Source: an uncultured Gammaproteobacteria bacterium (GTDB taxonomy: Bacteria > Pseudomonadota > Gammaproteobacteria > Chromatiales > Chromatiaceae). From it: a stretch of DNA of 42,519 bases. Every line of letters starts with the position of its first letter. The stretch's first letter is position 1. Below the pieces are notes generated by a model, which was given only the letters and a program-made list of their open reading frames with translations, did no database searches and was not told the origin of the DNA. Of this stretch, positions 1 through 42,519 are shown piece after piece. Location: contig CBDVCD010000001.1 in assembly GCA_965372385.1 (NCBI GenBank), positions 1 through 42,519 on the forward strand. Direction: 5' to 3'. Position numbers and translations under genes: made by a program.

Positions 1-833
1 ATACCCACCACGGAGCTATTGGCAAGCTCCTCCACTCTTCTGGGAGGATACCCCAGTTCCCCATAGGGAATATAGGGGTCCGTAGTGTTGTGGCACTCAT
101 CACAGGCAACAGGCTCTTTACTGAGATTTTTATGAATGATTTCATTCATCTGTGATTTTTGCTGTGTGCTAAGTTTGTTCTCTTCCTCCAGATAACGATC
201 GACGAACTCTTTATTTTCAACCCCATTGATAAAATCAAAAATATTTTCCTCGAACTGGCCAGGAGCAATCTTTGCACCATAGTTGCCATAGGCAGGGTAA
301 TAGGATCTGTCACCTACCGCATGCTTACCTTCAATCTCGACCAGCGAAACTGGATTGACCGTCTGCTGCCCTGTCTTTTTGTCATACCAGCGAAACGAGT
401 ATTTGGACAGCTTGTCTTTAGCCGCAATATGACAGGTTTGACATGCGGTATAGAATGCATGCATGTTTAAAAAACTACGCGTTTCCTTGTCTTTATTATG
501 CGGTATATCGCCATGGCAGATTATGCAGGTACTGGCTCTATCCTCATCCATCTCAAAACCTATGTGATGAAAGCGACCCGCGATATAGGGCTGCTCTATG
601 ACGCGGTAGCCCAAATCGGTTTTTTTGGTTTCTCCTTTATCGGCTAGCAGTTTAATAAAGAGCCTCTCTTCATCAGTACCCGCTTGACCCAGTTCCATCA
701 AGGAGGCCCCCGCCTCTTCCTTACCTTCAAAACCGAATATCAGCGGATACATGAAAACGCCATACCAGACGGTAAAGGCCATCAATAAAATAACATAGGC
801 CTTGAATACCAGAGATTTAAGGGTCTTCACCAT
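1..833 (-). CDS. multihaem c-type cytochrome with N-terminal membrane anchor (partial; 3' end runs off the window)
   Basis: Absent from the ORF track because it has no stop inside the window. My minus-strand translation from ATG 833 gives MVKTLKSLVFKAYVILLMAFTVWYGVF (a TM helix), then the haem motifs CIICH, CQTCH and CDECH. The ATG overlaps the stop of the upstream gene (ATGGTGA, 827-833), suggesting translational coupling. Confidence 0.75.
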   Translation of the reverse strand, partial: MVKTLKSLVFKAYVILLMAFTVWYGVFMYPLIFGFEGKEEAGASLMELGQAGTDEERLFIKLLADKGETKKTDLGYRVIEQPYIAGRFHHIGFEMDEDRASTCIICHGDIPHNKDKETRSFLNMHAFYTACQTCHIAAKDKLSKYSFRWYDKKTGQQTVNPVSLVEIEGKHAVGDRSYYPAYGNYGAKIAPGQFEENIFDFINGVENKEFVDRYLEEENKLSTQQKSQMNEIIHKNLSKEPVACDECHNTTDPYIPYGELGYPPRRVEELANSSVVG

Positions 834-1642
834 TCGTAATTCTCCCCGGCAAAGCTCTGAGGCTTGATTTCGTCTTCTAATCCATTTTCGATCATGACCC
901 GAACATAATCGGCGTAGTGCTCATGCACCATGTCATGTTCATTGAGATAACCCGTTATCCATACTGTCGCCGAAGGAAACTTCTCGGGGGCGTAGTGCAC
1001 ATTGTACCAATGCACAAAAAATAGAAATAACACCGCCAGCAATGCCTCATCGGTGTGCATGATGTAGAACGCATTCAAGGCAAAACCCGGGAGTATTTGT
1101 GAAAACTCATCCCGCCACCACAAGGCAAAACCCGCGGGTCCAAGGATGGGGATACCCCAGTATGGCGCAAAGTAGTCGAACTTTTCCCTCCATGACATCC
1201 GGTCATGTCTTGGCGGACGATTGGTGAAATAGAGCAGATATTTCCAGATCTGCACGATATCTTCCCAATCCTTTTTATTCGGCACCATTTCGAGGGACAA
1301 CAATGCCTTAGTAGCACTACCGACGGTAAGCCTATTTTCTCGCTTTAATTTAACCAGATGCTTAGTGTAAAAAATATAGATCCAATAAAACGTGTGGTAG
1401 AAGAATAACAGCATAAGCACCGTACCCGCGGCCCGATGAATCAATGGCGCGATTTCTGTCCCGCCCATAAAATCATACAGGGGTTTCGCCCAAGCCTCTT
1501 CCGCATGCCTTAAAGGAAACCCTGTCACCGCAAGGAGAATGATCGTGATGAACAGCACCACATGCTGTACCCGCTGGTGCGCGGAAAAGCGATAGAAGAA
1601 ACGCTTTCCAGCCTTATAGATTATGGGTTCGTATGTTCTCAT
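827..1642 (-). CDS. membrane b-type cytochrome (FdnI/HydC-like di-haem cytochrome b family)
   Basis: 271 aa with several hydrophobic helices carrying conserved His (HQRVQHVVLF, LIHRAAG, FFYHTF, FFVHWYNVHY). It sits between two multihaem cytochrome c genes. Confidence 0.65.
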   Translation of the reverse strand: MRTYEPIIYKAGKRFFYRFSAHQRVQHVVLFITIILLAVTGFPLRHAEEAWAKPLYDFMGGTEIAPLIHRAAGTVLMLLFFYHTFYWIYIFYTKHLVKLKRENRLTVGSATKALLSLEMVPNKKDWEDIVQIWKYLLYFTNRPPRHDRMSWREKFDYFAPYWGIPILGPAGFALWWRDEFSQILPGFALNAFYIMHTDEALLAVLFLFFVHWYNVHYAPEKFPSATVWITGYLNEHDMVHEHYADYVRVMIENGLEDEIKPQSFAGENYEW

Positions 1643-1654
1643 TTTATTACCCTT

Positions 1655-2767
1655 TTACCGATCGTCCGAGCGAGATTCTGTCTTTATTTCCCTTATGATT
1701 TCATCGTAGTCATCTACGTGCTTTTCTTTGAAAAATGCAAAGGTTGGGAACAGCCTGCGCATCAACTCCAGGAATATCAGGGCCAGGAAGAAATACAGAA
1801 CAAATGCCATGAGGGCCTTGAAACCTATCAGCATGTAAAACTGCATCGGGTATTTTTCTCTGTCGTAGGTGACATGCGTCTGGAAACTTGCCAGCATGGG
1901 CCCAGCCTGCTCGTGACACTCTGACGTTCTACAAGTGGTTGCTACGTTATTTTCATGCACAGAGGATGTATTGACATCTTTCGCTTCGATTAAGTGGGAG
2001 TTCTCACCCTCTACAATATGGCAATCGATACAGTCCGGCATGCGCTCGGAACCCAATGTGATCAACTTGCCATGGAAGGTTTCTTTATAGGATGTAACAA
2101 CATCATCCAGGTTATGTCTTTCCCTGAAGCCTTTGTCCTGATGGCATTTCGCGCAAACCTCTATGGTCTCCAACGGGAACCGGGTTTTGTGCAGACGAGT
2201 TGTAATGTGCTCATAAAAGTCTTCCGCGAAGGCACCGCTTGTATGACAGCTTTTGCATCGACTGATTGCGCGTTTTGAAACACCCGCAATTTTCTCGCCT
2301 TTGTAGATGGAAAAAGGTCTGTACACGGGTTGGTCGTGACAGCTTTTACAGTCTGGATAATCCTCCTCATGCTCCTTGGGCAAGCCATTTTCATCCAGTC
2401 GACCATGGACACTCTTAGCCAGGGTCTGCGCTACCGCTTTATGGGAAAAGTTGGTTTGTCCTGACGGCTCGACAATATGGCACTCCTGGGTACAATCGAC
2501 CTTTTTCGCGGGCTCATGGGGGATCTGGTCAATGTCGGCATGACAATCCTTGCAGTCGACCCGTCTATGCGGGCCGCTGTTGAACAGCTCCTCATTGATA
2601 TAGAAGAGTCTGAATTGGCCATTTTCATCGATACGGCTCAAGCCTCTGTGTTTATGACAGAGTACGCAGTTCATCTCATCATCTGAGTAGACCGAAGCAG
2701 GCAGGACAAAGAGGAAAATTGCAGTCAACGCAAAAAGAAGATAACTGGTTGCCTGAGGTTTTTTCAT
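1655..2767 (-). CDS. multihaem c-type cytochrome (6 CXXCH plus CX3CH and CX4CH) with signal peptide and C-terminal TM helix
   Basis: Motifs seen: CVLCH, CKDCH, CTQECH, CKSCH, CKSCH, CAKCH, CIDCH, CRTSECH. I prefer ATG 2767 (MKKPQATSYLLFALTAIFLFVLPA) because AGGAAG lies 5 nt upstream; the track start is 2824. The C-terminal hydrophobic segment is YMLIGFKALMAFVLYFFLALIFL. Confidence 0.8.
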   Translation of the reverse strand: MKKPQATSYLLFALTAIFLFVLPASVYSDDEMNCVLCHKHRGLSRIDENGQFRLFYINEELFNSGPHRRVDCKDCHADIDQIPHEPAKKVDCTQECHIVEPSGQTNFSHKAVAQTLAKSVHGRLDENGLPKEHEEDYPDCKSCHDQPVYRPFSIYKGEKIAGVSKRAISRCKSCHTSGAFAEDFYEHITTRLHKTRFPLETIEVCAKCHQDKGFRERHNLDDVVTSYKETFHGKLITLGSERMPDCIDCHIVEGENSHLIEAKDVNTSSVHENNVATTCRTSECHEQAGPMLASFQTHVTYDREKYPMQFYMLIGFKALMAFVLYFFLALIFLELMRRLFPTFAFFKEKHVDDYDEIIREIKTESRSDDR

Positions 2768-3289
2768 TTTTCTTCCTGTGAATCGTGAATAATCCAGTCT
2801 TATCAAACTATGATTATTTGTCATTCATTGGCTATAACGACTTTCATCTGCTCGTAGAATCAAACGTAGCTTAAGTCTACGCATGATTATACAGCCTGCA
2901 CATTAAATCAGGGATGCGATACGCGGTAAGCGTAGAAATAGAGAATGCACGATTCTGTCGATACTGCGACTCAAACTCCAAGCGCAGTAAGTAGATACTG
3001 AATTTCAAAGCGCTCCTCACCCCAAATTTTTATTATTAGGCATCTGCCCACCATCCCGACAAAACCTCATACCATTAGCAGTCAGTCAATGGATACAAGG
3101 CTAGGATTTTCTTTCTTTGCAAGTTTGCATCGTCCAGGCCACATCGTCAACCCAAATTATTTTATTCCTTGGCTGTAAATGTCATTTCAATGGGTTAAGT
3201 CAATTGCAGGTTCACTATATTTTAGACAAACATGAGGATTACGATCCGATACAATACTTTATCAGGATCTGTCATTAATACTTTTGTAC

Positions 3290-3368
3290 TAGTGCTCCGT
3301 CAAGGTTGTATTGATGGCTTCAGCGTTACTGTGGTGTTTCGCAACAAGACAACCTTGCCGGAGTACTA
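3290..3368. repeat. 79-bp hairpin element with 20-bp inverted arms (18/20), overlapping the stop codon of the 3366-3629 gene
   Basis: Left arm tagtgctccgtcaaggttgt (3290-3309), right arm acaaccttgccggagtacta (3349-3368). The first 28 nt recur at 11245-11272 (27/28). Confidence 0.7.
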
Positions 3369-3629
3369 AAACGAACCATAGAGCTCCTCACTGTTTAAAT
3401 TGGTCCAATCCCCTTGTTCAAAATAACCCGGAGAAAATGATTTTTGTCCAAACGGATGGCTGCTATCTCCAATAACGGGTTGTTGTGCGGTTGCGGGCTG
3501 ATAGCCTGAATCGTCTTTCACCTGCTGTTTAACGTCTGAATCCGTTTCGCTCCATACGCCTCCTTTCCAATCTGCATACGCACTACCAGCGAAAAACAGT
3601 AAAACCACGATAGTCAGTACCTTTTTCAT
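3366..3629 (-). CDS. small secreted hypothetical protein
   Basis: ATG 3629 is preceded by AAGAGGA. The signal peptide is MKKVLTIVVLLFFAGSAYA. No recognisable family. Confidence 0.5.
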   Translation of the reverse strand: MKKVLTIVVLLFFAGSAYADWKGGVWSETDSDVKQQVKDDSGYQPATAQQPVIGDSSHPFGQKSFSPGYFEQGDWTNLNSEELYGSF

Positions 3630-3730
3630 GATCGTCATCCTCTTGGTATAGAAATTAAGAAGGCAGATTTTTCTCCACCTTTCCATCACTAATACGCATC
3701 ACGGTGACTATTGGTTTCACCCATGATGGA

Positions 3731-4840
3731 TCACTCATAGCCCGCCATCTCCAGATAACCCCGTCCCAGTACCGCTCCATTCACCTCGTCGCTGACCTCA
3801 ACCGCACCCTCCCAGTAGCGCACGCTGAGATGCATCTCCTGATCGGCAAGCAGGGCTCGAATGCGCCAGGGATGGGCTTCATCCTGCAGCCGAAGCTGCC
3901 ACTCGATGGGATAGCGTCTTGCATCAGACCCCCAATATTTCAACGGGGTAAGCGTGACAAGACTGGAATCTAAATGTATCCGCACACCCTCACTGTCACT
4001 TACGGAACCGGCACTGTGGGAGTCTGTGGCGCCATCTTTGCGCCGCAGTTGGTAGTACATCAGATTGCGCCCATCCTGCAAATGCAAAGAAAACCAGTCC
4101 CAGCCTGTCTGATCGGGGCCAAGAACGCTGGTGCTCCACTCCCGGTCGAACCAGGCCAGACCGCTGACTGGCAGGCTCTCGCCCTGGATCTTCAGGCGGC
4201 CATGAGCCCGTAGACGTGGGATCGAGTAGTAGTAAGAGGCGTTACCGGACTCTGCGCTTTTCTGGCTCAGCCCTGCGTTGCCCTGGAGGATGATGGGGCT
4301 GATCGGAGCAAGTTCAAGGGTCAGATCGAAGCCCTCGGCGGGTAGCCGCAGTCGCCAGTTTTGTTCTCCTTCATCTTCCCACAACTGCCAATCCTCCAGC
4401 CAGACCTTGAAGGGCAGGGCGGTTGCGCCCGCCAGCCCAATACCCTGACGGGCGAAGCGTTCATCGGCCAGGTGTTGACCCGCGGAAAGATCGCTGAGGG
4501 CGGCATGGGCCATCCAGATCTGATGGGTGCGCCAAGCGGATGGACTGTCGATGGACTCCGGCTGCAGGGCAATGCGGAAGAAGGTGACCTGGAAGCCGAA
4601 GGCACGCCCATCTTCGCCCCGCAGATTGCCGGTGATATACCACCACTCGTTGCGGTAGGCCGGATGGGGGCCGTGGTCCTGGGGAAAACTGAAGGGGCGC
4701 ACTTGTGTGGCGCGGGCGAAGCCCTCCAGATCACCATCGCCCAGGGCATCGGTCACCTGGAACTCATCGGGCTCTGGCATGGGCTGGCCGCAGCCAATCA
4801 GCAGCAGGATGAGCAGGAGTAGTGGAGACCAGTGCATCAT
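3731..4840 (-). CDS. AttH/CrtC-like (hydroxyneurosporene-synthase fold) lipoprotein, partner of the FtsX ABC transporter
   Basis: Lipobox LLLIGC, and the motif DHGPHPAYRNEWWYITGNL...FGFQVTFFR typical of AttH-like proteins. Same strand, directly downstream of the permease and ATPase. Confidence 0.7.
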   Translation of the reverse strand: MMHWSPLLLLILLLIGCGQPMPEPDEFQVTDALGDGDLEGFARATQVRPFSFPQDHGPHPAYRNEWWYITGNLRGEDGRAFGFQVTFFRIALQPESIDSPSAWRTHQIWMAHAALSDLSAGQHLADERFARQGIGLAGATALPFKVWLEDWQLWEDEGEQNWRLRLPAEGFDLTLELAPISPIILQGNAGLSQKSAESGNASYYYSIPRLRAHGRLKIQGESLPVSGLAWFDREWSTSVLGPDQTGWDWFSLHLQDGRNLMYYQLRRKDGATDSHSAGSVSDSEGVRIHLDSSLVTLTPLKYWGSDARRYPIEWQLRLQDEAHPWRIRALLADQEMHLSVRYWEGAVEVSDEVNGAVLGRGYLEMAGYE

Positions 4841-4841
4841 C

Positions 4842-4963
4842 CTAGAATCTGCAGTTGGACGGGGTAGCGTGATTCACCCAGTAGACGTGTCGGTCTATCG
4901 AACAAAATACACATGAATTCAACTCGTTAATAGTAGAATGGAGTGGTCAACTGCAGAATCTAG
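4842..4963. mobile_element. 122-bp MITE/ERIC-like palindromic element (family A, 'gcag' subtype) in the permease-attH spacer
   Basis: TIRs are ctagaatctgcagttggac and ggtcaactgcagaatctag (16/19). It is flanked by catcatc and gatcaac. A 60-bp short form lies at 32481-32540. Confidence 0.7.
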
Positions 4964-4970
4964 GATCAAC

Positions 4971-7484
4971 CTACTCCTCCCGCAAAGCCAGGGCCGGCTG
5001 TACCCGGCCCATACGCCAGGCGGGATAGAGCCCAGCCAACAGGGCGGCGCTGAGCGCCAGCAACAGGGCCTCGATTATTGCGCCGGGTGGCAACAGGGTT
5101 GTGATGCTCCAGCCGAAGGAGCGCCGGTTGATCACCTCGATCAGCACCACCGACATCAGCCAGCCCAGGGGCAGGGAGAGTATCCCCGCATAGAGCCCCA
5201 TCAGGCCGGTCTGCAGCAGGGTCAACAGGGTTAGCTGGCCCGGGGTGACGCCGGTGGCGCGCAGCACAGCCTGCTCCCGGGTACGCTCGAGCTGCAGCGC
5301 CATCAGGGCGCTGAGCACCCCGACGAAGGCGACGCCGATCACCAGCAGGCGCAATACCTGAGTGATGGCGAAGGTACGGTCGAAGACCTCCATGGAGTGC
5401 TCGCGGATCTCCCGGTTGGAGCGGATCTGCACCTCCTGCTCCAGGCTGTTCAGCGTCTTGCGTATCGCCTCGATGGCGCTTGCTGTCTCCACTCCCGGTT
5501 GCAGAAACACCCCCAGGGTGGAAAAACCTTTGTCCCCCCACAGCCGGGCATAGGTCGCATGGTCCAGATTGATCACGCCCTGGTCGGAGCCATAGTCGTA
5601 AAACACCCCGCCAATTGGCAGACTCACAGGTCCCTGTGGAGTATGCAGCAGCAGCTCGTCCCCGGTCCTCAGCCGGTGCCTGTAGGCATAGGGCTCGGAG
5701 ATCAACACCACCTCTCCCTTGCGATAACGGGACCAGATATCCGCAACAGGAGAATCAACAAAACCAAAGCCCTTATGGCTCTTAGAGCCCATGTCGATGG
5801 CCATCAGATCCACCGGGCCATACTCGCTGATGACCCGGGTTCGCCGGCCTCCACTGGTCTCCGCCACCCCTGGCACGGACTGAATCAGGGTTCGGGTGGA
5901 GGTCAGCAGGGTGCCATCCGAACCGTTCAAGCGGCTGGAGAGGGCGGAGACATAGATATCGCTGCGCAGGGTATGGCCCAACCAATCCTCCACGGTGGCG
6001 CGGAAACTGGTGATCATGATGCTGACCCCCAGGGTGGTTGCCACCGCCACGCTGAGGGCGGCGATGGAGAGCCCGGTGCGACTCAGGTTGGCGCCGATGC
6101 CACGCAGGGCAAAGCGTGCCAGCAGGCTGCCACGCCCGGCCAGATTGCTGCTGAGCCGGCTTATCAGCACCACCGCCAGAGGCATCAGCAGGCTGTAACC
6201 GGCGATAATCAGGAACAGGCCGGCAAAGCCGCCGGTAAGGCCATTCTCTTCCTGTCTCACCAGCAGCAGTCCGCTCAGCAGGGCGGTTAACCCCAGCAGC
6301 CCCACCCAGGGCAGCCCCCGGTGGACCCGCTGTTCCAGCAGGGAGCGGCGCAGGGCGCTGACCGGGACGGTGCCGGCGGCCTCGATGGCAGGCGCCAGCG
6401 CCGCCAGCAGGGTGATGCCGAGACCGATCAGGATACCCTTGAGCAGCAGCAAGGGCTCCAGCATCAGCTGGGTGACCGTGAGCACAAAGTAGAGATCGTT
6501 GATGGTGCGGGTGACCAGTTGCACCAGGTAGTGGGCGGTAAACACCCCCAACGCCAGCCCCAGGGCAGTACCAATCAGGCCGAGTAGAAAGGCCTCCAGC
6601 AACAGCAGTTGGAACAGGGCCTGGCGGGTGACGCCGAGCAGGCGCAGGGTGGCCAGCAACTGACGGCGGCGCAGCACCGAGAAGGTCATGGTGTTGTAGA
6701 TCAGAAAGGCCCCCACCAGCAGCGCCAGCAGACTCATGGCAGCCAGGTTGGTCTGAAAGGCCTCGATCATCTCAGACATAATCCGGGTGCGGGATTCCGG
6801 CACCTCCAGGCGCAGCCCGGGCGGCAGCTCTTCGGCCAGCCGTTGCGCCTGTTCCGGCTGCAGGATCAGATCGATGCGGTCGAGCCAGCCGGTGTGTTCC
6901 AACAGCTCCTGGGCGGTGCTGATATCGGCCAGCAGCAACCCCTCCAGCACTGCGGGGTTATCCCCCTCCAGCAACCCGGCGATGCGCAGGGTGACCGGCC
7001 GTCCTGCCACGGTAACGTCAAACCTGTCGCCAGGCGTGAGCTCAAGTCGCTCGGCGGTGATGCTCGACAGCAGCACCGTGGCGGGCTCGGTAAACAGCTC
7101 CCTGACCGCCTGCGTACCCAGGCCGACACCGATCTGGCGGAAGGGTGCTTCGGCCAGGGGATCGATGCCGATCAGCTGCAGGTTCTCCACCCCCAGTTTC
7201 ACCAGCCCCTCCACCACCGGGGCGGACTGGCGCAGGCCCCGTTCGATGCGCAGCTCCCGGTAGAAAGACTCGGGAATGCCGCGATGACCGCCGAGGATCT
7301 GGTGGGTGACCCGGCCGGTGAGGGTTTCGGCGGAGAGCAGGAAGGCTTGACGGGCACTCTGATTGGCCAGGTCCACCGCCACGATTACCGTCACCCCGAG
7401 GGCGATGCCGATGATCGACAGCCAGGTCTGCCAGGGATGCCGCCGCAGATGACGCAGGGCGCTGAGCAGCAGCAGACGGTTCAC
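4971..7484 (-). CDS. ABC transporter permease, duplicated FtsX/MacB-type (837 aa)
   Basis: Two FtsX-like 4-TM modules with large extracytoplasmic loops. It overlaps the ATPase gene by 4 nt. Confidence 0.85.
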   Translation of the reverse strand: MNRLLLLSALRHLRRHPWQTWLSIIGIALGVTVIVAVDLANQSARQAFLLSAETLTGRVTHQILGGHRGIPESFYRELRIERGLRQSAPVVEGLVKLGVENLQLIGIDPLAEAPFRQIGVGLGTQAVRELFTEPATVLLSSITAERLELTPGDRFDVTVAGRPVTLRIAGLLEGDNPAVLEGLLLADISTAQELLEHTGWLDRIDLILQPEQAQRLAEELPPGLRLEVPESRTRIMSEMIEAFQTNLAAMSLLALLVGAFLIYNTMTFSVLRRRQLLATLRLLGVTRQALFQLLLLEAFLLGLIGTALGLALGVFTAHYLVQLVTRTINDLYFVLTVTQLMLEPLLLLKGILIGLGITLLAALAPAIEAAGTVPVSALRRSLLEQRVHRGLPWVGLLGLTALLSGLLLVRQEENGLTGGFAGLFLIIAGYSLLMPLAVVLISRLSSNLAGRGSLLARFALRGIGANLSRTGLSIAALSVAVATTLGVSIMITSFRATVEDWLGHTLRSDIYVSALSSRLNGSDGTLLTSTRTLIQSVPGVAETSGGRRTRVISEYGPVDLMAIDMGSKSHKGFGFVDSPVADIWSRYRKGEVVLISEPYAYRHRLRTGDELLLHTPQGPVSLPIGGVFYDYGSDQGVINLDHATYARLWGDKGFSTLGVFLQPGVETASAIEAIRKTLNSLEQEVQIRSNREIREHSMEVFDRTFAITQVLRLLVIGVAFVGVLSALMALQLERTREQAVLRATGVTPGQLTLLTLLQTGLMGLYAGILSLPLGWLMSVVLIEVINRRSFGWSITTLLPPGAIIEALLLALSAALLAGLYPAWRMGRVQPALALREE

Positions 7485-8179
7485 CAGGCCAGCTCCATAC
7501 CCTGTTCATTGAGCTGGCCATCCTGCAGGGTGAGGATGCGGTCGGCCCGGCGGGCCACCGCCAGGCTGTGGGTGACCAGCAGCAAGCTGCTGCGTTCCTC
7601 CCGCGCCAGGGCGATCATCAACTCGATTGCCTGCTCCCCGGTCGCCTGATCCAGGTTGCCGGTGGGCTCGTCGGCGAGCACCAGGGCAGGGCGGTGCACC
7701 AGGGCGCGAGCGATGGAGACCCGCTGCTGTTCACCACCTGAAAGCTGGTCAGGGAAGGCCGCGTCACGCTTACCCAAATCCACCGCGTCCAGCATCTGCG
7801 CCACCTGAAGCCTGATCTCGTCTCGCGGATGGCCGTTCAGTTCCAGGGGCAGGGCGATGTTCTCCGCCACGTTGAGGGTCGGGATCAAATTGAAGAACTG
7901 GTAGACAAACCCGATGCGACGCCGTCGGAACAGGGTCAGGGCCGGTTCCTTGAGCTTGGTGATACGCTCCCCGCCGATGAAGATCTCCCCGCTGTCCGGC
8001 CGATCGATGCCGGCGATCAGATTCAGCAGGGTCGACTTACCCGAGCCACTGCGGCCCAGCAGCGCCACGCATTCGCCAGGCAGGATCTGCATGTCCGCAT
8101 CACGGATCACCTGGTGGGTACGATCACCCTCCCGATAACCGCGGCTCAGGTTCAGAATGTGTACAGCGGTTTTATCCAT
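7481..8179 (-). CDS. ABC transporter ATP-binding protein (LolD/MacB-type)
   Basis: Walker [10 protein letters not shown], signature [15 protein letters not shown], Walker [13 protein letters not shown]. Confidence 0.9.
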
Positions 8180-8319
8180 CGCGCCCGGGACTCTTTGTTG
8201 AATGCCATATTATATTGGCATGCATTATCATTCTCGACCAATCACCCTAAAACCACCGGTTTAAGCCAACAGGCTTTTTCGGCATGCTGCTCATAGGCAA
8301 TATCCTCAGGAGAACAACC

Positions 8320-8673
8320 ATGTCCGCCCCCCATATCAAGACCGCCATCCCCCTGCAACGCCACCAGATCGGCAGCTTCGTCGCCACCGTGCTCGGTGAT
8401 ATCGTTAGCGACGATCCAGTTAACTACCGCTTCATCATGGCGATAGTGGAGGATGGCAAGCAAGAGCCTGCGCTTTATGTGGCCTCGGAGCGCAACACCG
8501 GAGCCTCGACCACCGAGGGTCGCTACCGCTTGCGGGTGGTGATGGGGGAGGAGGAGAAGCTGCTGCCTCCCTCGGACGAATGGGGTGAGGTGGACAAATT
8601 CTCCCTGGCCGGCATGGGCATTATCGCCAAGCTGATGCGCCTGGAGGACGAACAGCCGGTACGCTTGATGTAA
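8320..8673 (+). CDS. hypothetical protein
   Basis: ATG 8320 has AGGAG 7 nt upstream (the track start 8284 lacks an RBS). No family recognised. Confidence 0.45.
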   Translation: MSAPHIKTAIPLQRHQIGSFVATVLGDIVSDDPVNYRFIMAIVEDGKQEPALYVASERNTGASTTEGRYRLRVVMGEEEKLLPPSDEWGEVDKFSLAGMGIIAKLMRLEDEQPVRLM

Positions 8674-8676
8674 AGC

Positions 8677-8774
8677 AATCACCTGCGTGTGAGCGCAACC
8701 GTCGGCGGGAGCGATCACGCCGTCGAGCGTACAGGGAGGTATTCATCGCGTGTTGCGAGCACACGCAGGCGATT
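8677..8774. repeat. 98-bp inverted-repeat element (23-bp arms, 20/23) just after the stop codon
   Basis: Arms are aatcacctgcgtgtgagcgcaac (8677-8699) and gttgcgagcacacgcaggcgatt (8752-8774). Confidence 0.55.
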
Positions 8775-8891
8775 ACTTTCATAATGATGAATATCATCAC
8801 GGCACTTGCACTCTGGCCTATTTAGGGTCTAATAAATCCTCAATATCAAGATGAACAGAAGGGAATTCCCCTGTCCAAGATAAGCGCCTCG

Positions 8892-10232
8892 GTGCGTCCC
8901 CAAGGCAGCCTTGAGGTCCTCTCACAGCTGGAGGTCAACGCCCTGCTGGATACCAGCGCCAAAGGGCTGTATGGCCTGTTCCGGCGCTGCGCCCTGGCGG
9001 TGCTCAACTGCGGCAGCGAGACAGACGACGCACGTGAGATCTTCAACACCTATAGAGATTTCGACATCAACCTGATGCAGCGTAACCAGGGCATCAAACT
9101 ACGGCTCGAGAATGCGCCGGAGAGTGCATTCGTAGAAGGCCGGATGATCAAGGGCATTCAGGAACACCTGTTTGCCGTGCTGCGGGACATCATCTATGTG
9201 CACAACGAGATCCACAACGATCCGAGCTTCGATCTGGAGATCTCCAGCCACATCACCTCCGCCGTGTTTCATATCCTGCGCAATGCGCGGGTGCTGCATA
9301 CCGGTGCCCAGCCCAATCTGGTGGTCTGCTGGGGTGGTCACTCCATCGACCGGGAGGAGTATGACTACTCGAAGGAGGTGGGTTACGAGATGGGGCTGCG
9401 GGGTCTGGATATCTGCACCGGCTGCGGCCCTGGGGCGATGAAGGGGCCGATGAAGGGGGCGACCATCGGCCACGCCAAGCAGCGCATCAATAACGGCTGC
9501 TATCTGGGCATCACCGAGCCAGGCATCATTGCCTCCGAGCCCCCCAATCCCATCGTCAACGAACTGGTGATCATGCCGGATATCGAGAAGCGCCTGGAGG
9601 CCTTCGTGCGCACCGGCCATGGCTTTGTGATCTTTCCTGGCGGCGCGGGCACCACCGAAGAGCTGCTCTACCTGCTGGGCATACTGATGCATCCGGACAA
9701 CCGGGAGCATCCCTTTCCCCTGATCTTCACCGGCCCGGCCAAGTGCGCCGATTATTTCCACGAGATCGACCGCTTCATCGGCATCACCCTGGGAGCAGAG
9801 GCGCAGCAGCACTACCAGATCATCATCGATGATCCCGTTGCGGTGGCCAGGGCCATGCGTGAGGCGATGGAGAGCGTCAGGGCATACCGCACCGAAGGTA
9901 ACGATGCCTTCTACTATAATTGGAGGCTGAAGATCGACCATGAGTTGCAGCAGCCCTTCATCCCCACTCACAAGGCAATGCGCGGGCTCAGCCTGAACCG
10001 GCAGCTGAAATCCAATGTGCTGGCGGCGAATCTGCGCCGCGCCTTTTCCGGTATCGTGGCCGGCAACGTCAAGGAGGAGGGCATTCGCGCGGTGGAACAG
10101 CATGGTCCCTTTCAGATCCACGCAGAACCGGAGATCGTCTCGGCGATGGATCATCTGCTGTTGGCCTTCGTGGAGCAGAACCGGATGAAGCTGCAGGGCC
10201 ACTATTCACCCTGTTATCAACTGGTTACATAA
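8892..10232 (+). CDS. ppnN: nucleotide 5'-monophosphate nucleosidase PpnN (LOG-family, YgdH-like)
   Basis: Collinear with my recollection of E. coli PpnN. Shared stretches: LSQLEV, FRRCALAVLN, VVCWGGHSI, CTGCGPGAMKGPMKGA, IMPDIEKRLEAFV, FPGGAGTTEELLYLLGILM, LRRAFSGIVAGNVKE. GTG start. Confidence 0.9.
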   Translation: MRPQGSLEVLSQLEVNALLDTSAKGLYGLFRRCALAVLNCGSETDDAREIFNTYRDFDINLMQRNQGIKLRLENAPESAFVEGRMIKGIQEHLFAVLRDIIYVHNEIHNDPSFDLEISSHITSAVFHILRNARVLHTGAQPNLVVCWGGHSIDREEYDYSKEVGYEMGLRGLDICTGCGPGAMKGPMKGATIGHAKQRINNGCYLGITEPGIIASEPPNPIVNELVIMPDIEKRLEAFVRTGHGFVIFPGGAGTTEELLYLLGILMHPDNREHPFPLIFTGPAKCADYFHEIDRFIGITLGAEAQQHYQIIIDDPVAVARAMREAMESVRAYRTEGNDAFYYNWRLKIDHELQQPFIPTHKAMRGLSLNRQLKSNVLAANLRRAFSGIVAGNVKEEGIRAVEQHGPFQIHAEPEIVSAMDHLLLAFVEQNRMKLQGHYSPCYQLVT

Positions 10233-20988: not shown

Positions 20989-21003
20989 TGAGGGGTACAC
21001 GCT

Positions 21004-21246
21004 ATGCCCGCGTTAACCATAAAAAACATCCCTGACGACCTATACCATGAACTAAAACATGTTGCAGAACAACATCATAGAAGTATTAATAATGAAGTCA
21101 TCATGTGCCTTAAACGCTCTCTTCTGCCTAAAAAGGTATCTCCCGAGGACAGATTAAACGACATTCGCGCTCTTCGGGCACAGATTGCCCCTAATTCCAT
21201 TACTGAAGAAGATATTGAACAAGCCATTAATGACGGCAGACCATGA
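21004..21246 (+). CDS. vapB: VapB-type antitoxin (ribbon-helix-helix, Arc/FitA-like)
   Basis: MPALTIKNIPDDLYHELKHVAEQHHRSINNEV. It overlaps the PIN gene by 4 nt. Confidence 0.75.
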   Translation: MPALTIKNIPDDLYHELKHVAEQHHRSINNEVIMCLKRSLLPKKVSPEDRLNDIRALRAQIAPNSITEEDIEQAINDGRP

Positions 21247-21663
21247 TCGTTGCTGATACAAACATCATTTCATATCTTCTTCTACCCACTTCCTATTCAG
21301 AGTCAGCCGATGCAGCGTACAAACTTGATTCCGATTGGGCAGCTCCACTGCTCTGGAAAAGTGAATTCCGAAATGTTTTAGCGCTATACCTCAGGAGGAA
21401 AATCATTAATCTTGAAAAAGCATTTCAACTTCAAGAAATCGCTGAATCAATCATGACTCAGAACGAATTTGATGTTTCCTCTTATCAAGTGCTTGCGTTA
21501 ATCAATGAGAGTCAATGCTCCTCGTTACGATTGCGAATTTATCGCCCTTGCTCACCACCTCAACACTCCACTTGTTACACAAGATAAAAAGATTTTAAAA
21601 GAATTTCCATCTACGGCGATAACGGTCGCTTACTTTATATCCAGTTACGCGAGCAAGCCCTAA
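21243..21663 (+). pseudogene. vapC: VapC PIN-domain toxin, frameshifted near 21513-21525
   Basis: The N-terminus MIVADTNIISYLL is in frame 0. The conserved C-terminus YDCEFIALAHHLNTPLVTQDKKILKEFP... is readable only in frame +1 and ends at 21661-21663. Confidence 0.7.
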
Positions 21664-21814
21664 CGATCGATGAATATCTGCTTATCCTTGAACAGTTCGG
21701 CATGGGCATGAGTATGGCATTGAAAGACTAAAAGGAGTAGTTGGACCGGCTTACCCCAAAGGTACTTCCTGCGGGGCGCAGAGGGAGCCATATTGTGCCG
21801 ATTTGAGAAGTTAC

Positions 21815-21855
21815 GACTTCAGCTCAGCGTAATCATGAACGGCAGGTCAGCCGCG
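21815..21855 (+). repeat. 41-bp direct repeat, copy 2
   Basis: See 20753-20793. Confidence 0.7.
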
Positions 21856-21926
21856 AAACCAACCATTCAGTTGATTGGTTGGAAAGGAATAAGTAAGAAA
21901 AAGTTAGGTAAAAAGAAGAGGGTATA

Positions 21927-21947
21927 ATATACTACATTGTAGTATAT
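21927..21947 (+). promoter_or_regulatory. candidate parDE operator overlapping a TATAAT -10 box
   Basis: atatactaca-t-tgtagtatat has perfect 10-bp arms. TATAAT is at 21923-21928, and the parD ATG is 27 nt downstream. Confidence 0.5.
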
Positions 21948-21973
21948 CTTCATCTAATTCTTGGAGAACAAAT

Positions 21974-22240
21974 ATGCCAATGGTCAAAAAAAGCATATCG
22001 GTGACTGATCAACAAGACAGTTGGATAAAGGCACAGATTGAAACCGGACATTACGGCAACGAGAGCGAAGTTATCCGAGAGTTAATCCGAGAGCGTCAAA
22101 TTCGAGAGCAAGAAACCCCCGCCGAAATTGAAGCGATCCGCGCCGCGTTGATTGAAGGCGAGAAGAACGGTTTTAGTGATAGCTCTGTAGACGAGATATG
22201 GGAAGAAGCCAGAAAACGCCACAGGGCGAAACATGCCTGA
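21974..22240 (+). CDS. parD: ParD-type antitoxin (RHH, COG3609)
   Basis: KKSISVTDQQDSWIKAQIETGHYGNESEVIRELIR. Confidence 0.8.
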   Translation: MPMVKKSISVTDQQDSWIKAQIETGHYGNESEVIRELIRERQIREQETPAEIEAIRAALIEGEKNGFSDSSVDEIWEEARKRHRAKHA

Positions 22241-31884: not shown

Positions 31885-32339
31885 TAGTCGACCCGACACT
31901 GTGCAAAAAAATCATCCAGCCCCACCTCTTCCGCATAGGCCTTGAGTACCTTGGGACGAGGGCCCTTATCCTTCACTTCAAATACAGTATCGGGTTCGCT
32001 GGGAACATGAGTATATTTTCCAGCCGGGATCTTGACCGTGGTTTTCGCTCTTGCCGCTTTACGACGACGCTTCACCGACACCTTCTTTTTTGCGGGCGCT
32101 TTTTCCGGTTGCTCCCTTTTTGCTTCTTCTTTATCAATCTTGGTGACGATTCTGCGAATCGTTTTATAGTTGAAACGAACAAATGTTTCGAATGAGAGTC
32201 CTGCCTCCTCCAAAACCTGCGTGATATGCTGATGGGCTCCCTCTAGCGCTTCCCGCTCTTTAGTCTCTTTCTCCTGTTGCTGTTCCAACTTCTCAATTTT
32301 CGCTCGCAGAGCTTCAATTTCTTTTTGCGTATTAGCCAT
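31884..32339 (-). CDS. coiled-coil, lysine-rich small protein (possible nucleoid-associated/H-NS-like; family not recognised)
   Basis: N-terminal heptad-like EIEALRAKIEKLEQQQEKE and a central basic tract KKKVSVKRRRKAARAK. It borders an AT-rich 0.5-kb spacer. Confidence 0.5.
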   Translation of the reverse strand: MANTQKEIEALRAKIEKLEQQQEKETKEREALEGAHQHITQVLEEAGLSFETFVRFNYKTIRRIVTKIDKEEAKREQPEKAPAKKKVSVKRRRKAARAKTTVKIPAGKYTHVPSEPDTVFEVKDKGPRPKVLKAYAEEVGLDDFFAQCRVD

Positions 32340-32480
32340 AATTGTTTAACTTATTTAACCTGTTATTCGGAGCAATTAATTTTAAATTGTTTTTAAGGTA
32401 GTTAACAATACTTTTATGTATCGGTTTAAATGCCAGAATCCATCAACTATTTATTACATAGTCATTGATATCTATTCAAC

Positions 32481-32540
32481 CTAGAATCTGCGGTTGGACG
32501 GGGTAGAGTGTAGAATGGAACGGTCAACTGCAGAATCTAG
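32481..32540. mobile_element. 60-bp minimal copy of family A element (essentially two TIRs back to back)
   Basis: ctagaatctgcggttggacggggtagagtg|tagaatggaacggtcaactgcagaatctag. This equals the 4842-4963 copy minus its 62-bp interior. Flanked by attcaac and gttcaac. Confidence 0.7.
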
Positions 32541-32865
32541 GTTCAACAGTTAAGGAAATAGATAATCGCAACATCTGTTCCCTTGTTCAGATAAAGCTAC
32601 AAATAGAATGAGTGATTACAAAGTGAGAAATTTGGCGAGATTGAGATCAGGCTTGCTGGGCTCATAATAGCAAGAATCTATCAGCGAGATGAACAGTCGA
32701 GTCAAAATTCCGTCGCAATACCAATAATCACATAACATACTGAATAACCTGCCTATAATATTCCACACTGTAAAGATAAACCGATCAACTCAGGAAGGTG
32801 ATTCCGCGACCCTGCAATAGATTTATGTTAGCCTGAAATTAAACTTCCACTCAGGGGGAATCCTG

Positions 32866-33222
32866 ATGAAAAAGAAAGGTTTCAGTAAGTTTGATTTTGA
32901 TTCGATGGTTGCAATTGCGCAAAATAATCCGGACGAGTTCGAGCGTCTGAGGCAACAGGCCATTGATGAATTTATCGAAAATGCCTCCCCTGAGAATCAG
33001 GCGCGGCTGCGTGGACTTCAATGGCGGATCGATCAGGAGCGGAGAAATCGCAGCCCTCTGAGCGCCTGCATAAGGATCTCCGAAATGATGTGGGATCACC
33101 TGCTGGGCTCTCATGGTCTCCTCGCGCATCAGGAGCGATTACTCTATAACAAACATCCGATCGCCAGGGACTCCGCTAAGGTTCTTCGGTTTACAACGAA
33201 CTCTAGTACTCCTTCAAGGTAA
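32866..33222 (+). CDS. DUF3135 family protein
   Basis: FDFDSMVAIAQNNPDEFERLRQQAIDEFI...ARLRGLQWRIDQER. The last codons lie in the agtactccttcaaggt motif. Confidence 0.6.
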   Translation: MKKKGFSKFDFDSMVAIAQNNPDEFERLRQQAIDEFIENASPENQARLRGLQWRIDQERRNRSPLSACIRISEMMWDHLLGSHGLLAHQERLLYNKHPIARDSAKVLRFTTNSSTPSR

Positions 33223-33440
33223 TCACTTAGGCTGCAGCCAGCCAGTCGGGTAGCGGTTAGCTGCTACGCCTACATGGATGTAGGTGGTAGAGCAACGCAT
33301 GGAGCAATTGCCGAGGCGCGCGAGCGACGTACTAACCGTAGCTAATTCGAGCAAGCGCAACAACTCAGATGACCGCTTCCCGGCTGGCCCGAAGGGAGCT
33401 TCCCAAGGCCAATAGAACAACAACTTGCCTCGCAAATAAA
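33204..33440. repeat. ~240-nt structured intergenic element sharing a core with 28386-28651
   Basis: Long-range stem 33237-33257/33372-33388, hairpin cctacat-gg-atgtagg at 33269-33284, and the shared core at 33368-33406. Confidence 0.55.
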
Positions 33441-36430: not shown

Positions 36431-36467
36431 AAAAAACATATCCATCGTACCGAAAGTAACTTTTCAG

Positions 36468-36577
36468 CCTCCGTAGGAGCTGCCCGTGGCTGCGATCAGC
36501 GACGATAGTCGCTTTGTGTGAAGATACCGAAAAGGCCGCCACCCTTAGTCGCGGCCATGGGCCGCTCCTACGACGGC
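36468..36577. repeat. 110-bp compound REP-like element, copy 2 (inverted relative to 25939-26049)
   Basis: Starts 38 nt after the stop at 36430. Confidence 0.75.
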
Positions 36578-36667
36578 ATTCTCCGTGTGATGATATGGAC
36601 ATGACATAGGGAGCTGAATGGTTACCGCAATTATTTAAATAACCCCTATTTGATTCAGGAGGAGACG

Positions 36668-38017: not shown

Positions 38018-39350
38018 ATGAGTATACAAAGGTTCAAATCCAGCTGTTTCAAGGGCTTGAGGCAACCACAAGGGCATTCTACTCCAAGCAAATCCATTCG
38101 CTTGCTGCGCCTCAGCTTACTCGTCCTTGCCCTGGGACTGATGGTGTCGCACCTGACTCTGGTCATGGCCAAGAACCAGGACAGCGACAACAGGGGCAAG
38201 CCGGTACCATCCACCAATCCGGTAATATCCACCAATGTCGAGATTTACGATGACGGCGCGAGTGGCACCGGCGGTGATTGCAGCACCGGAACAAATCCGA
38301 TCGGCAGCTGGGACGCCTCCAGCAAGACCTGCACCCTGATCCGGGACGTCGATGCCGCAATCCTCATCCACGACCCCAATAATACACAGTTCGGTGTGAC
38401 ACTCGACGGTGACGAATATGCGGTCAACCTGCCCCAGGATGGCTCGGTCACGATAGAAGGAAGCAATCACACCCTCGAAGATCTGACCATCAATGGATAT
38501 TCTGCGGATGAGTCTTCCGGCGCTGGGGTCTATCTGTCTGATGCCTATTCAGTCACCGTAACTGACATTGAGGTGACGAATACTGTAGTGGGCATCACCT
38601 TTCATGCCTCCATGAACAGCATCGTCAGCGACAGCACCTTTTCCGGGGTTCGAACCGGCGCCAATCTTAATGGCACCTACCACCAGTATTACTGCGAAGA
38701 AGAGGGCTACCTCCCTTACTGTGGGGCCAGCAACAATACCCTTGAGAACAACACCTTCTCGCACAACTCGACTGATCATGATGGTTATGGCATCTATTTA
38801 GGTTTCGCAGCCCGGGACAATACCATCAGGGGCAACACCATCTCCGGTTTCAATTAGGCTATGTCTGCGTTAAGTGTTGGAACAAATCTAACCTCTTGAT
38901 TTTTCACGACCTACCTTTAGTTTGCAATTTACTTTAATTTCAATAAGTTAGTGTCACTTGAAATCGAAATCAACACTTAACGCACACATAGCCTTCAATT
39001 ATGGGGTGTACATACCTGACTGGTATTGTTCCTACATCTATACCAGCTATTCATCCTGTCAGGATGGCAACACTGTCTATCAGAACAGCTTCATAGACAA
39101 TTTCATCGACGACTACACCACCAGTTTCAAAACACAGATCTATGCCGACTGGGGCTACACGACCACCGTCTTCAATCTGGATGCGCCTGACGGCGGCAAC
39201 TACTTCAATGATTTCGATGAGCCGGCCGAGGGCTGCGAAGATGCCAATGGCGATGGTTTCTGTGACATCTGCTATTACGGCAAGAATACCTACGACTGTT
39301 TGCCATGGACAACAGAGGAGGGCTGGTCACCCGAAGATGATGACGATTAG
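38018..39350 (+). pseudogene. right-handed parallel beta-helix (PbH1/NosD-like) repeat protein gene, interrupted by a MITE
   Basis: ORFs 38018-38857 and 38994-39350. Repeats of the form NTxxxNxxxG (LEDLTINGY, VTVTDIEVTNTVVGITF, NNTLENNTFSHN, DNTIRGNTISGFN). Deleting 38857-39001 fuses them as ...ISGFNYGVYIPDW.... Confidence 0.75.
38857..38993. mobile_element. 137-bp MITE (family B) with 23-bp TIRs and an 8-bp TTCAATTA target-site duplication
   Basis: TIR-L ggctatgtctgcgttaagtgttg and TIR-R caacacttaacgcacacatagcc (22/23). TSD copies at 38849-38856 and 38994-39001. AT-rich interior with no ORF. Confidence 0.85.
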
Positions 39351-39797: not shown

Positions 39798-40859
39798 ATG
39801 CAGATAACCGGCATGCAATGGGGCGCAAAGCTCCTCAATTATGTGGACTTTCCCACTTCAGAGGTGCTGGGGCCGGAAGCCACCAGTGAACAGAACAAGG
39901 ACCTCATCGACCGCTATGGCATGAGCACCCTGGAGTTGAATCCGATCCGCATGATGCCGAAAAAAGGCCGGCTGATCCCGGTGGCCTGTGACTTCAAGTG
40001 CGCCTTCGACACCGACACCCCGCCTGGAAGCGGCTGGAGCTGCCTGCCAGCCTGGACTCCTCCAACTACTCCGATTTCGAGCTGGAGGTGAACGAACTGC
40101 GCACCTATCAGGGCCAGTCGAATGTGTTCGTCACCAACGAGCTGGGCTCGGTCACCGCCATGACCTTTGGCGGGGGTGCCAACGCCCTGGTCACCGAACT
40201 GCTCGGTGAGGCGGGCAGCATCTCCTCGGATTTCGGCGGCAACCCCCCTTACGAGAAGATGTATGAGATCAGCCGCATCGTCTACAAGCACTGGCTGGAT
40301 CAGAGCAACGTGCTGTTCATCATCGGCGGCAAGGCCAACAACACCGACATCTACACTACCTTCCGAGCGATGGCGGAGGCCCTGCGGGACTACTTCAACA
40401 GCCATGTCTATTCCGGTGGCAACGTGGTGTGCGGCACCATGCCAGGACGCTCCGGTGCGGTGCTGAAGACCGAGCTGGGGGACATCCCGGTCTACAATTC
40501 GGTGGTGGAGGCCCTGGAGGCTGACCACCACTTCAACGTAGCAGTGGTTCATGGAGAAGTTCGGCGTGGACGGCATCTATACGGCCGATAATCCAGTCTG
40601 CTCCACCAAGGGCGCGGTAGTAACCAATATTGCCGATATACCGACCGCCATGACTGCGGTCATGGCGCTGAATCAGGCCACACCCGATTTCGACTCCAGG
40701 GGCGATCTCTCCCTGAAGTGCTGGTTTGCCGATGATCTTGGGGACCTACTACTACCGCCCGAGCTGGATATTCAGCCGGTGCAGGCGGTCTCCCCCTATG
40801 GCGAACAGATCAAACTGGTGAACGATCAGATAGGGGTATCTTCCCCCGCCAAAGCATGA
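39798..40859 (+). pseudogene. ATP-citrate-lyase beta / succinyl-CoA-synthetase-beta-like gene, 5'-truncated with two frameshifts
   Basis: Aligns with my memory of ACLY: STLELNPI..., then FVTNELGSVTAMTFGGGANALVTELLG...DFGGNPPYEKMYEISRIV...LFIIGGKANNTDIYTTFRAMAEALRDYF. Frame changes occur near 40018-40021 (a C4 run) and 40542-40550. The ATP-grasp N-terminal ~200 aa are absent, and frame 0 has a stop at 39774. Confidence 0.7.
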
Positions 40860-42104
40860 AGGATGCCTCAGGCGCCTCCATGATGGACCCAAAGAGCCAG
40901 ATCACCCGCCTGTTCGGGATCAGTGTCCTGGATGTGGCTACCCACTCCTATGAGGATAATCTGGTGCTCTCCCTGATTCGGGAATATCCCGACAGCAACA
41001 GCCGCGCCCTCGCCAACGTCGCGCTGAATGCCTATATCAACCTGCACGACACACCCATGCTCACGGCGGCCTATGCAGCGCGCCAAGCGGGTAACAGCCC
41101 GAATACATCACTCTGCGCCGCCCTGAGCATCATTGGCCCAGGCATGGTGGCGGGTGCTAGAGAGAGCGCCCGGGCAATGCTCGACCTGTTTCGAAAATCC
41201 GGTCTTGCTGACCCGGCGGATGAGGAGTTCGATCTGCAACCCCTGCTCCAGCAAACCCAGGAGGAAGAGGCCATCGCCCATTTCATCGGCAGCGAAGAGG
41301 ATGAACGCGCCAGGATCATGCTCGACGGCACCGCCGCGCGGGGGGCGAACTCTGTGTTCCTGCGTTACCTTCAGCTATTGCAGCAGGAAACCAACAGCTT
41401 CATCAGCGCCGACGCCGTACTGGCGGCGATCTGTTGCCATCTGGCCTGGAAACCTCTGCTGCACAAACGGCTCTCGGTCACCACGCTGTTCAACCTAGAA
41501 ACCTCAGTTGAACACCGTGAAGGGTGCGCTTGTGGTGGTGCAGGGCAAGGCACAACGACGCGGAATAGTTGTTCTATTGCAAGGAGTTGTAACGCAGGCT
41601 TGCGCCGCCACAAGCGTGCCATTCGCAGTGTAGCGTTGCTCACCCAATAGGTGAAACCTTTCGATACTGATAAAAAACTTATTTTTTCAAAGCGATTAAC
41701 GCAGTACATAGCGGTCAACTGAGGATTCTAGGTTCAACATGCCCTGGCATCTGCGCATCTTCTCCGCCGCTTTGGGGGCCTCGGTGCGTAGCGAACGCCA
41801 GACCGAAACCTCTTTTGGTGGAGTTTTGATGGAAGAGCTGGTCAAGGCCCTGGCCAGCTACGGGGTAAGCCGCAACATCTATTGCGTCAACATCGACGCG
41901 GTGATCGCGGTGATCCTGCTGAAGATGTTATGGCGACCCTTCGTGGCGGGTGAGATCGACGAGCAGTTCCTGGAGTATGGCGCCTTCACCACCTTCGTCT
42001 ACGGACGTATGGTGGGCGAGGCGGCGGAGATCGAAGACCACACCAACCGTGGCCACAATATGGATACCCGCACCCCAGCCAGTCAGTGCCGGTTTGTCAA
42101 TTAG
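40856..42104 (+). pseudogene. citrate-synthase-like / citryl-CoA-lyase-like domain gene (ACL C-terminal-domain homologue), interrupted by a MITE
   Basis: ORFs 40856-41650 and 41739-42104. The tail NIYCVNIDAVIAVILLKML...GAFTTFVYGRMVGEAAEIEDH resembles the ACLY/citrate-synthase C-terminus. Removing 41495-41738 gives one 334-codon ORF. The ATGA overlap with the upstream gene suggests coupling. Confidence 0.65.
41495..41731. mobile_element. 237-bp MITE (family A, 'gagg' subtype) with 19-bp TIRs, flanked by direct GTTCAAC copies
   Basis: TIR-L ctagaaacctcagttgaac and TIR-R ggtcaactgaggattctag (17/19). GTTCAAC at 41488-41494 and 41732-41738. There is an internal stem gcgcttgtggtggtgcagg/cttgcgccgccacaagcg. 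Confidence 0.8.
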
Positions 42105-42235
42105 CCTCCCCCCTGACAGGAGGGAGGTATTAAGTGTTTTCTCCCTGACAGAGCGAGGTATTAAGTTCCTCCCCCCTCGGCAGGGGGTGGCAAAAAAGTC
42201 CCTTCCCCCTTGCAGGGGGGAGGTTAGGAGGGGGG
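42105..42235. repeat. tandem array of four ~30-bp C-run/G-run hairpin units (REP/BIME-like)
   Basis: Units: cctcccccctgacaggagggagg, tccctgacagagcgagg, ccccctcggcaggggg, cccccttgcagggggg. The first two are each followed by gtattaagt. Confidence 0.7.
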
Positions 42236-42246
42236 TAATCTTTCAC

Positions 42247-42519
42247 TCAATGCGACGGAATAAACTGATAGCGGTGCACCATGTGGACAAAATCCTGCAA
42301 GGCTTTGATGTTGGTCGCCTCAGCCTGCGCACACCACTGCCGCAGGGCCTCCAGCCGTATCCCATGACTTGACGCCTTCTGCTCCCAGATCTCATGCAGT
42401 CGCAACTTGAATTGATAGACGGTGGCAAGTACTGAGCTCTGATCCAGCACCTCACCCAGCCTGATGCGTTCAACATCACTCAAAAGTACCGTCTCCCGCC
42501 GCGCCATCCGCTGGGCATA
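42247..42519 (-). CDS. C-terminal part of a protein running off the window. It resembles the C-terminal extension I associate with proteobacterial fatty-acid desaturase-family proteins (low certainty).
   Basis: The frame stays open to the window edge (YAQRMARRETVLL...). The motif LRQWCAQAEATNIKALQDF is recalled from memory only. Confidence 0.4.
   Translation of the reverse strand, partial: YAQRMARRETVLLSDVERIRLGEVLDQSSVLATVYQFKLRLHEIWEQKASSHGIRLEALRQWCAQAEATNIKALQDFVHMVHRYQFIPSH

Follow-up and report, generated by a model that had tools for sequence, protein, structure and literature searches.

A 137-bp segment within a secreted beta-helix protein gene of the window, i.e. the whole 42,519-nt stretch of Chromatiaceae DNA that was analysed, is very probably (a probability of roughly 0.9) a non-autonomous mobile element (MITE) that carries the ends of ISAchd1-like IS1595 insertion sequences and was inserted into the gene. 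The anatomy of the element, its empty site, the family of the full-length elements with matching ends and the habit of targeting AT-rich 8-bp sites were all observed directly, and the empty sites in two related loci support the initial description of the segment as a MITE interrupting a beta-helix gene. In the proposed mechanism, a gene elsewhere in the genome would supply a DDE transposase of the IS1595 family, bearing a zinc finger at its N-terminus, and this enzyme would have recognised both 23-24-nt ends and placed the MITE into an AT-rich octamer of the gene for the secreted beta-helix protein, with repair of the staggered cut then doubling TTCAATTA. The element would, on this account, have been mobilised in trans and have moved as a 137-bp unit. 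The features of the element and of the gene that it interrupts are:

38018..38857, plus strand: 5' fragment of the parallel beta-helix (NosD-like) gene, 279 codons plus TAG, Pfam Beta_helix/NosD
38849..38856, no strand: left copy of the target-site duplication, TTCAATTA, an exact octamer that is single-copy in the related loci L086 and L087
38857-38993: MITE body, 137 bp, non-coding
38857..38879, plus strand: left TIR (IRL-like), GGCTATGTCTGCGTTAAGTGTTG, with the same sequence as the left ends of the full-length elements L003, L041 and L073
38880..38970, no strand: interior, 91 bp, AT-rich, non-coding, 30% GC
38971..38993, minus strand: right TIR (IRR-like), GGCTATGTGTGCGTTAAGTGTTG, identical at 23/23 positions to the right end of L041, including the G at position 9
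38994..39001, no strand: right copy of the target-site duplication, TTCAATTA, adjoining the right TIR
39002..39350, plus strand: 3' fragment of the beta-helix gene, 116 codons that hold the conserved Cys-rich C-terminal part, no longer in frame with the 5' fragment

The first-pass annotation, which was made from the sequence alone, had described inverted repeats matching at 22 of 23 positions and an 8-bp direct repeat at 38849-38856 and 38994-39001, and these sequence statements were all correct. The site reads ...GGT TTC AAT TA/GGCTATGTCTGCGTTAAGTGTTG...(91 nt)...CAACACTTAACGCACACATAGCC/TTCAATTATGGGGTG..., and the sole difference between the two 23-nt TIRs is C/G at position 9. No further match to the TIRs at up to three mismatches was present in the whole 42.5-kb window, nor were any obtained from shuffled sequence (0/100), and the window holds exactly two copies of TTCAATTA, each abutting one TIR. 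The GC content is 36% in the element as a whole, 30% in its interior and 52% in the beta-helix gene. There are stops in all six frames of the element, the longest stop-free read-in extending for 26 codons, and a transposase gene is absent. The element folds into a hairpin of -43.6 kcal/mol (z-score -7.4), which is the pairing of the TIRs and nothing more; searches of the element against Rfam, at both permissive and gathering thresholds, gave zero matches, and a consensus scan for promoters and terminators gave no promoter-like or terminator-like site.

The ORF at 38018-38857 terminates in a TAG made up of T38855, A38856 and G38857, the base at which the element starts, confirming that the insertion itself completes the stop. 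Deletion of 145 nt (38857-39001) restores one 395-aa ORF reading ...NTISGFN/YGVYIPDW..., again as had been predicted; the restored ORF is free of any other lesion, and a Pfam NosD/Beta_helix match over its residues 154-352 bridges the junction at residue 279/280. The ORFs 38018-38857 and 39002-39350 are therefore a single pseudogene, with the 137-bp insertion lying between them. The accompanying claim that the insertion is in codon phase carries no meaning, as 145 is not divisible by three, such that a stop is created and the frame is also shifted; the sole coincidence with a codon boundary is the start of the duplicated octamer (TTC AAT TA). Truncation at codon 279 of 395 removes 116 residues, and in the alignment with homologues most C-terminal columns that are invariant in the family lie in the lost part, namely PDGGNY, EGCxD...DxFCD and LPWT..GW. 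To judge from these sequence features, the gene has most likely been inactivated by the insertion. An identification of the gene as NosD, the nitrous oxide reductase maturation protein, was rejected, as the restored protein reaches 42 bits on the NosD family model TIGR04247, for which the cut-off is 300. Apart from Pfam NosD/Beta_helix, it passes generic beta-helix repeat models and no others, and the gene product is a secreted parallel beta-helix repeat protein.

When the restored 395-aa sequence was used as a protein query, uninterrupted homologues were returned, namely P0001 (418 aa, 78% identity over full coverage) and P0002 (361 aa, 79% identity), and the homologue alignment is continuous across the junction (...ISxFNYGVYIPDW...). 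Gene order on the contig encoding P0001 (L086) agrees with that of the window, namely L31, SNase, PFK, cNMP-binding, dienelactone hydrolase (DLH), a 92-aa ORF and the beta-helix gene, with a DNA identity of 89-97%. At the insertion site, L086 and L087, which originate from other metagenomes, both read ...GGCAACACCATCxCCxGT TTCAATTA TGGGGT..., with one octamer and an intact gene without the element, and the junction between octamer and gene expected in the empty allele is ...GGTTTCAATTA/TGGGGTG.... Bases 6895-6902 of L086 align by BLAST to both octamer copies of the window. The empty site with a single octamer in these relatives indicates transposition with an 8-bp target duplication, so that the comparison with an uninterrupted orthologue that had been recommended at the outset, in the syntenic L086 as well as in L087, bears out the repeat as a genuine target-site duplication of the MITE.

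The identical 279-aa truncated product was recovered from four other assemblies (ENA ERZ25748748, ERZ25749332 and ERZ25073603, and Logan SRR22302364), the contigs of which are 99.9-99.99% identical to the window. Three of the four contigs span the element, which is identical base for base and has the same flanks, and the fourth contig ends within the element. The protein search with the restored sequence returned no uninterrupted allele above ~80% protein identity, and the insertion is present in every sampled population of the lineage. It is possible, if unlikely, that losing a surface protein was favoured by selection and that drift does not account for this distribution. From L086, the 115 codons of the 3' fragment differ by 14 synonymous and 2 non-synonymous changes, and the 5' part by 23 synonymous against 32 non-synonymous changes. 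The 3' piece thus appears to have been mostly under purifying selection during the divergence, which suggests that the insertion is recent on that scale and probably young relative to the ~5% DNA divergence from the nearest relative.

A full-length insertion sequence with the same ends, which the first-pass annotation had recommended seeking, was found by scanning GTDB genomes, one for each species, with the 22-nt end query GGCTATGTNTGCGTTAAGTGTT, the ends then being paired with mismatches allowed. This end scan yielded 81 loci. Long elements with MITE-type ends measure 1,025-1,045 bp and are flanked by 8-bp duplications, including the following:

L003: full-length element, 8-bp duplication TTCCTCAA
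L020: full-length element, 8-bp duplication AATAAATT
L041: full-length element, 8-bp duplication AAAAAAAA
L051: full-length element, 8-bp duplication TTTTCTTT

The long elements contain one long ORF of up to ~340 codons, and the transposase, ~320 aa in length, combines a zinc finger with a DDE domain. On the IS1595 model NF033547 of NCBIfam (cut-off 75), the transposases of L003, L020 and L041 reach 184-188 bits, and on the IS1/IS1595 N-terminal zinc domain NF050000 (cut-off 28) they reach 33-43 bits; Pfam DDE_Tnp_IS1595 (PF12762) gives 55-57 bits (cut-off 27) for L003 and L020, the two of these three that were scanned against Pfam. The ends of L003, L041 and L073 are identical to those of the MITE at 23-24 of 24 positions, and those of L041, an element of an uncultured gammaproteobacterial MAG, match fully (left 24/24, right 23/23), the C/G asymmetry included. 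Mutual identity among seven full-length elements is 54-92% with nearly invariant ends, and the 23-24-nt ends alone are the sequence that the MITE has in common with them. In L003 (1022-1045), L020 and L041, the transposase ORF enters the right inverted repeat and stops within it (...QHLTQT or ...QHLTHT followed by the stop), indicating that the end is constrained as coding sequence as well as as a binding site, and this double constraint may lie behind the near-invariance of the end among elements that are only 54-60% identical.

The nearest named relative is an ISAchd1-family IS1595 element on the Pseudomonas aeruginosa plasmid pPALO11 (CP075839.1, 45666-46692), the ends of which match those of the MITE at 19/23 and 21/23 positions and the transposase of which is 53% identical to that of L041. 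Both ends of the MITE begin with GGCTATG, and those of the pPALO11 copy with GGCTCTG and GGCTATG. The ISAchd1-like elements presumably correspond to the ISPna2 group of ISfinder, which has ends of the form GGCnnTG and an 8-bp duplication. Members of the IS1595 family usually generate 8-bp duplications and encode just one transposase, in which a zinc finger accompanies a DDE_Tnp_IS1595 domain (PMC8101967). By sequence comparison, the source of the MITE ends is assigned to the IS1595 family, and within it to ISAchd1-like elements.

Many short elements with MITE-type ends, of 122-690 bp, were also returned by the GTDB end scan. Perfect 8-bp duplications flank 26 elements, long and short together, with a mean A+T content of 86%, and within the flanking 8 bases at least 90% are A or T at positions -8, -7, -3, -2 and -1. 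The octamer TTCAATTA is among the 14 of 1,181 octamers in the beta-helix gene with at least 7/8 A/T, and the window insertion site therefore fits the target habit of the family. Across 88 distinct ends, the first 23-24 nt are almost fully conserved, conservation beyond position 24 being at background level, and a subterminal binding motif beyond the inverted repeat was rejected on this basis. Recurrence with a common interior was observed for 141-291-bp elements at five loci of the MAG MFD04716, for 166-bp elements in three Pseudomonas genomes and for a 122/123-bp pair in one MAG (L043 and L069), from which it follows that short elements with these ends move as units within a genome or genus; other Pseudomonas elements with these ends measure 480-690 bp. 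The 24-nt end is the sole common part of more than 10 unrelated short elements, whose hosts are Pseudomonas, Chromatiaceae and other gammaproteobacterial MAGs, together with bins labelled Verrucomicrobiota, Anaerolineae and Dermatophilaceae. These other short elements have the same 23-24-nt end and perfect AT-rich 8-bp duplications as the window MITE, but their interiors are unrelated to it, the apparent overall identity of 47-67% arising mainly from the ends. Within one study, the same 132-bp MITE is present at L028:1171-1302, in a bin labelled Verrucomicrobiota, and at L066:152-283, in a bin labelled Chromatiaceae, which suggests either mis-binning or recent transfer.

A second copy of the 137-bp element was not found in the window and the ~10 kb beyond its left end on the same contig (together ~52 kb of the host genome), nor in five neighbouring contigs. 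Additional ends and an IS1595 transposase were likewise absent from these stretches, and no IS1595 transposase was present in the related loci. None of the 81 GTDB loci carries the MITE interior, the ends alone being in common with the window, and IMG/VR contained no match to either a 28-mer of the interior or the end sequence. The peptides read into and out of the element were compared with a collection of 5.8 billion proteins, giving one candidate with shared words and nothing that scored. A search of JGI metagenomes with the exact 21-mer junction TTAAGTGTTGGAACAAATCTA gave a single match (L088), which lies inside an AT-rich ORF without an inverted repeat and was dismissed as chance. Such exact-match scans miss diverged copies. 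The first-pass annotation had taken a lack of both further copies and any related insertion sequence as grounds for abandoning the MITE interpretation; related insertion sequences are abundant, whereas a second 137-bp copy was not found. That unrelated short elements have just the 24-nt end in common raises the idea, which we regard as unlikely, that ISAchd1-like transposases repeatedly make new MITEs by enclosing arbitrary DNA between two ends; the window MITE, with its foreign-looking AT-rich interior and single known copy, would then be newly born.

That one copy of the exact 137-bp element is known, and that its ends are identical to those of the full-length L041, would also be expected of an in-situ remnant, i.e. 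a ~1-kb IS1595 element that inserted here and had its interior deleted later, never having moved as a small unit or belonged to a MITE family. Such an origin is improbable, as insertion-sequence DNA would then be expected beside the ends, but the 91-bp interior matches none of the seven full-length elements past the ends (0/7) and has a GC content of 30%, and same-ended short elements have spread as units in other genomes. There is very little to commend mobilisation by an ISL3- or IS256-family transposase, which the first-pass annotation had inferred from an 8-bp duplication and GG-starting ends compatible with those families. The N-terminal zinc domain of the candidate partners does match a model named IS256_N_4Cys (NF048018, 33-41 bits), but this zinc-ribbon domain is the only IS256-named model passed, and the three transposases that score as IS1595 fail both the ISL3 model NF033550 (26.6 bits, cut-off 180) and the IS256-variant model NF048019 (18.6 bits, cut-off 150). 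The only ISL3-like match in the window, an ORF at 42247-42507 on the minus strand, was rejected as a partner, its weak ISL3 matches being to the DesA/ISL3 alpha-bundle tail of a DesA-family fatty-acid desaturase (NF049919, 74 bits), the complete 393-aa gene of which is present in L082.

It is equally hard to credit that no insertion took place, and that the 137 bp represents either a hairpin conserved at the locus for a structural or regulatory role or an artefact of assembly. The strength of the hairpin would suit a structural role, but the hairpin consists of the paired inverted repeats, an Rfam match is absent, and related loci carry the single octamer without the element. An artefact is further at odds with the recovery of the insertion in four independent assemblies from different samples, three spanning the identical 137 bp and the contig of the fourth ending inside it. 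The preferred reading is that of a MITE with ISAchd1-like ends that was inserted into the beta-helix gene.

The 137-bp MITE was correctly described in the first-pass annotation as unrelated to the other small element nearby, their ends being different. Other small elements and insertions in the window are:

32474-32548: mini-copy of the second MITE family, ~75 bp, absent from L086
36458-36586: insert of ~130 bp with 29-nt imperfect inverted repeats (GCCTCCGTAGGAGCTGCCCGTGGCTGCGA...), absent from L086
39384-39408: solo end of the second MITE family, just downstream of the beta-helix gene stop
41487-41739: 253-bp copy of the second MITE family, ends TGTTSAACCTAGAAWCCTCAGTTGA, the removal of which fuses the ORFs 40856-41650 and 41739-42104

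The description of this region as an active insertion hotspot is unproven. An ORF is indeed split at 41487-41739 by the second MITE family, but the small insertions that distinguish the window from L086 are spread across 10 kb or more. The picture is one of a lineage peppered with small repeats and decaying genes, and not demonstrably one of a local hotspot. The insert at 36458-36586, which lies between the cNMP-binding and dienelactone hydrolase genes, looks REP-like or MITE-like. Upstream of the L31 gene, at ~33217-33408, the window has ~190 bp extra relative to L086, and at ~32.6 kb it is short of ~160 nt that L086 has. A 1-nt deletion at ~40838 (GGGGT-ATCTT, compared with GGGGTGATCTT in L084) converts a 361-aa ORF into ORFs of 102 and 264 aa, and this frameshift is polymorphic between assemblies of one population; the gene cluster adjoining an ORF with a Citrate_bind domain thus contains a MITE as well as a frameshift. 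At 42102-42226, downstream of a 121-aa ORF, G/C-rich hairpin repeats (CCTCCCCCCTGACAGGAGGGAGG and similar) form a cluster. GC content is heterogeneous across the window, at 57-66% in positions 4001-10000 (the ABC-transporter/MacB region) and 41-46% in positions 1-4000, 21001-22000 and 32001-33000. Taken together, the MITE, the second MITE family, the polymorphic frameshift and the small insertions portray an uncultured lineage that is accumulating gene disruptions.

Annotations should record the 137 bp as a mobile element and the flanking ORFs as one pseudogene, and for classification the element belongs with IS1595 (ISAchd1-like) rather than with ISL3 or IS256. The 24-nt sequence GGCTATGTCTGCGTTAAGTGTTGG serves as a search key that retrieves a widespread set of insertion sequences and MITEs in Gammaproteobacteria. 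Searches of the available literature returned no relevant paper for the 24-nt end sequence and none for ISAchd1. An IS1595-associated MITE is already on record, and the window element and its 24-nt end family appear to be undescribed in the searchable literature; the recent gene-inactivating insertion of an IS1595-type MITE is a clean, ordinary case of a known event.

Among the closest known systems are the ISAchd1-like IS1595 elements, e.g. the pPALO11 copy, and their relatives, which share their ends and AT-rich 8-bp duplications with the window MITE but are 1,025-1,045 bp long and encode a transposase, whereas the MITE is 137 bp, non-coding and has only the ends in common with them. An IS1595-associated MITE has been reported from Haloquadratum walsbyi, where it is tied to ISHwa6 and has a length of 165 bp, inverted repeats of 25, direct repeats of 8 and 7 copies (PMC3852290, Table 4). 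Like the window MITE it is short and non-coding, with inverted repeats of ~25 nt, an 8-bp duplication and a partner of the IS1595 family; the archaeal host and 7 copies set it apart from the one known copy here. Eukaryotic Merlin transposons and their MITEs are related through DDE_Tnp_IS1595 and likewise have GG-starting inverted repeats with 8-9-bp duplications (PMC8101967); Merlin is a eukaryotic superfamily, and its likeness to the window MITE is at the family level only.
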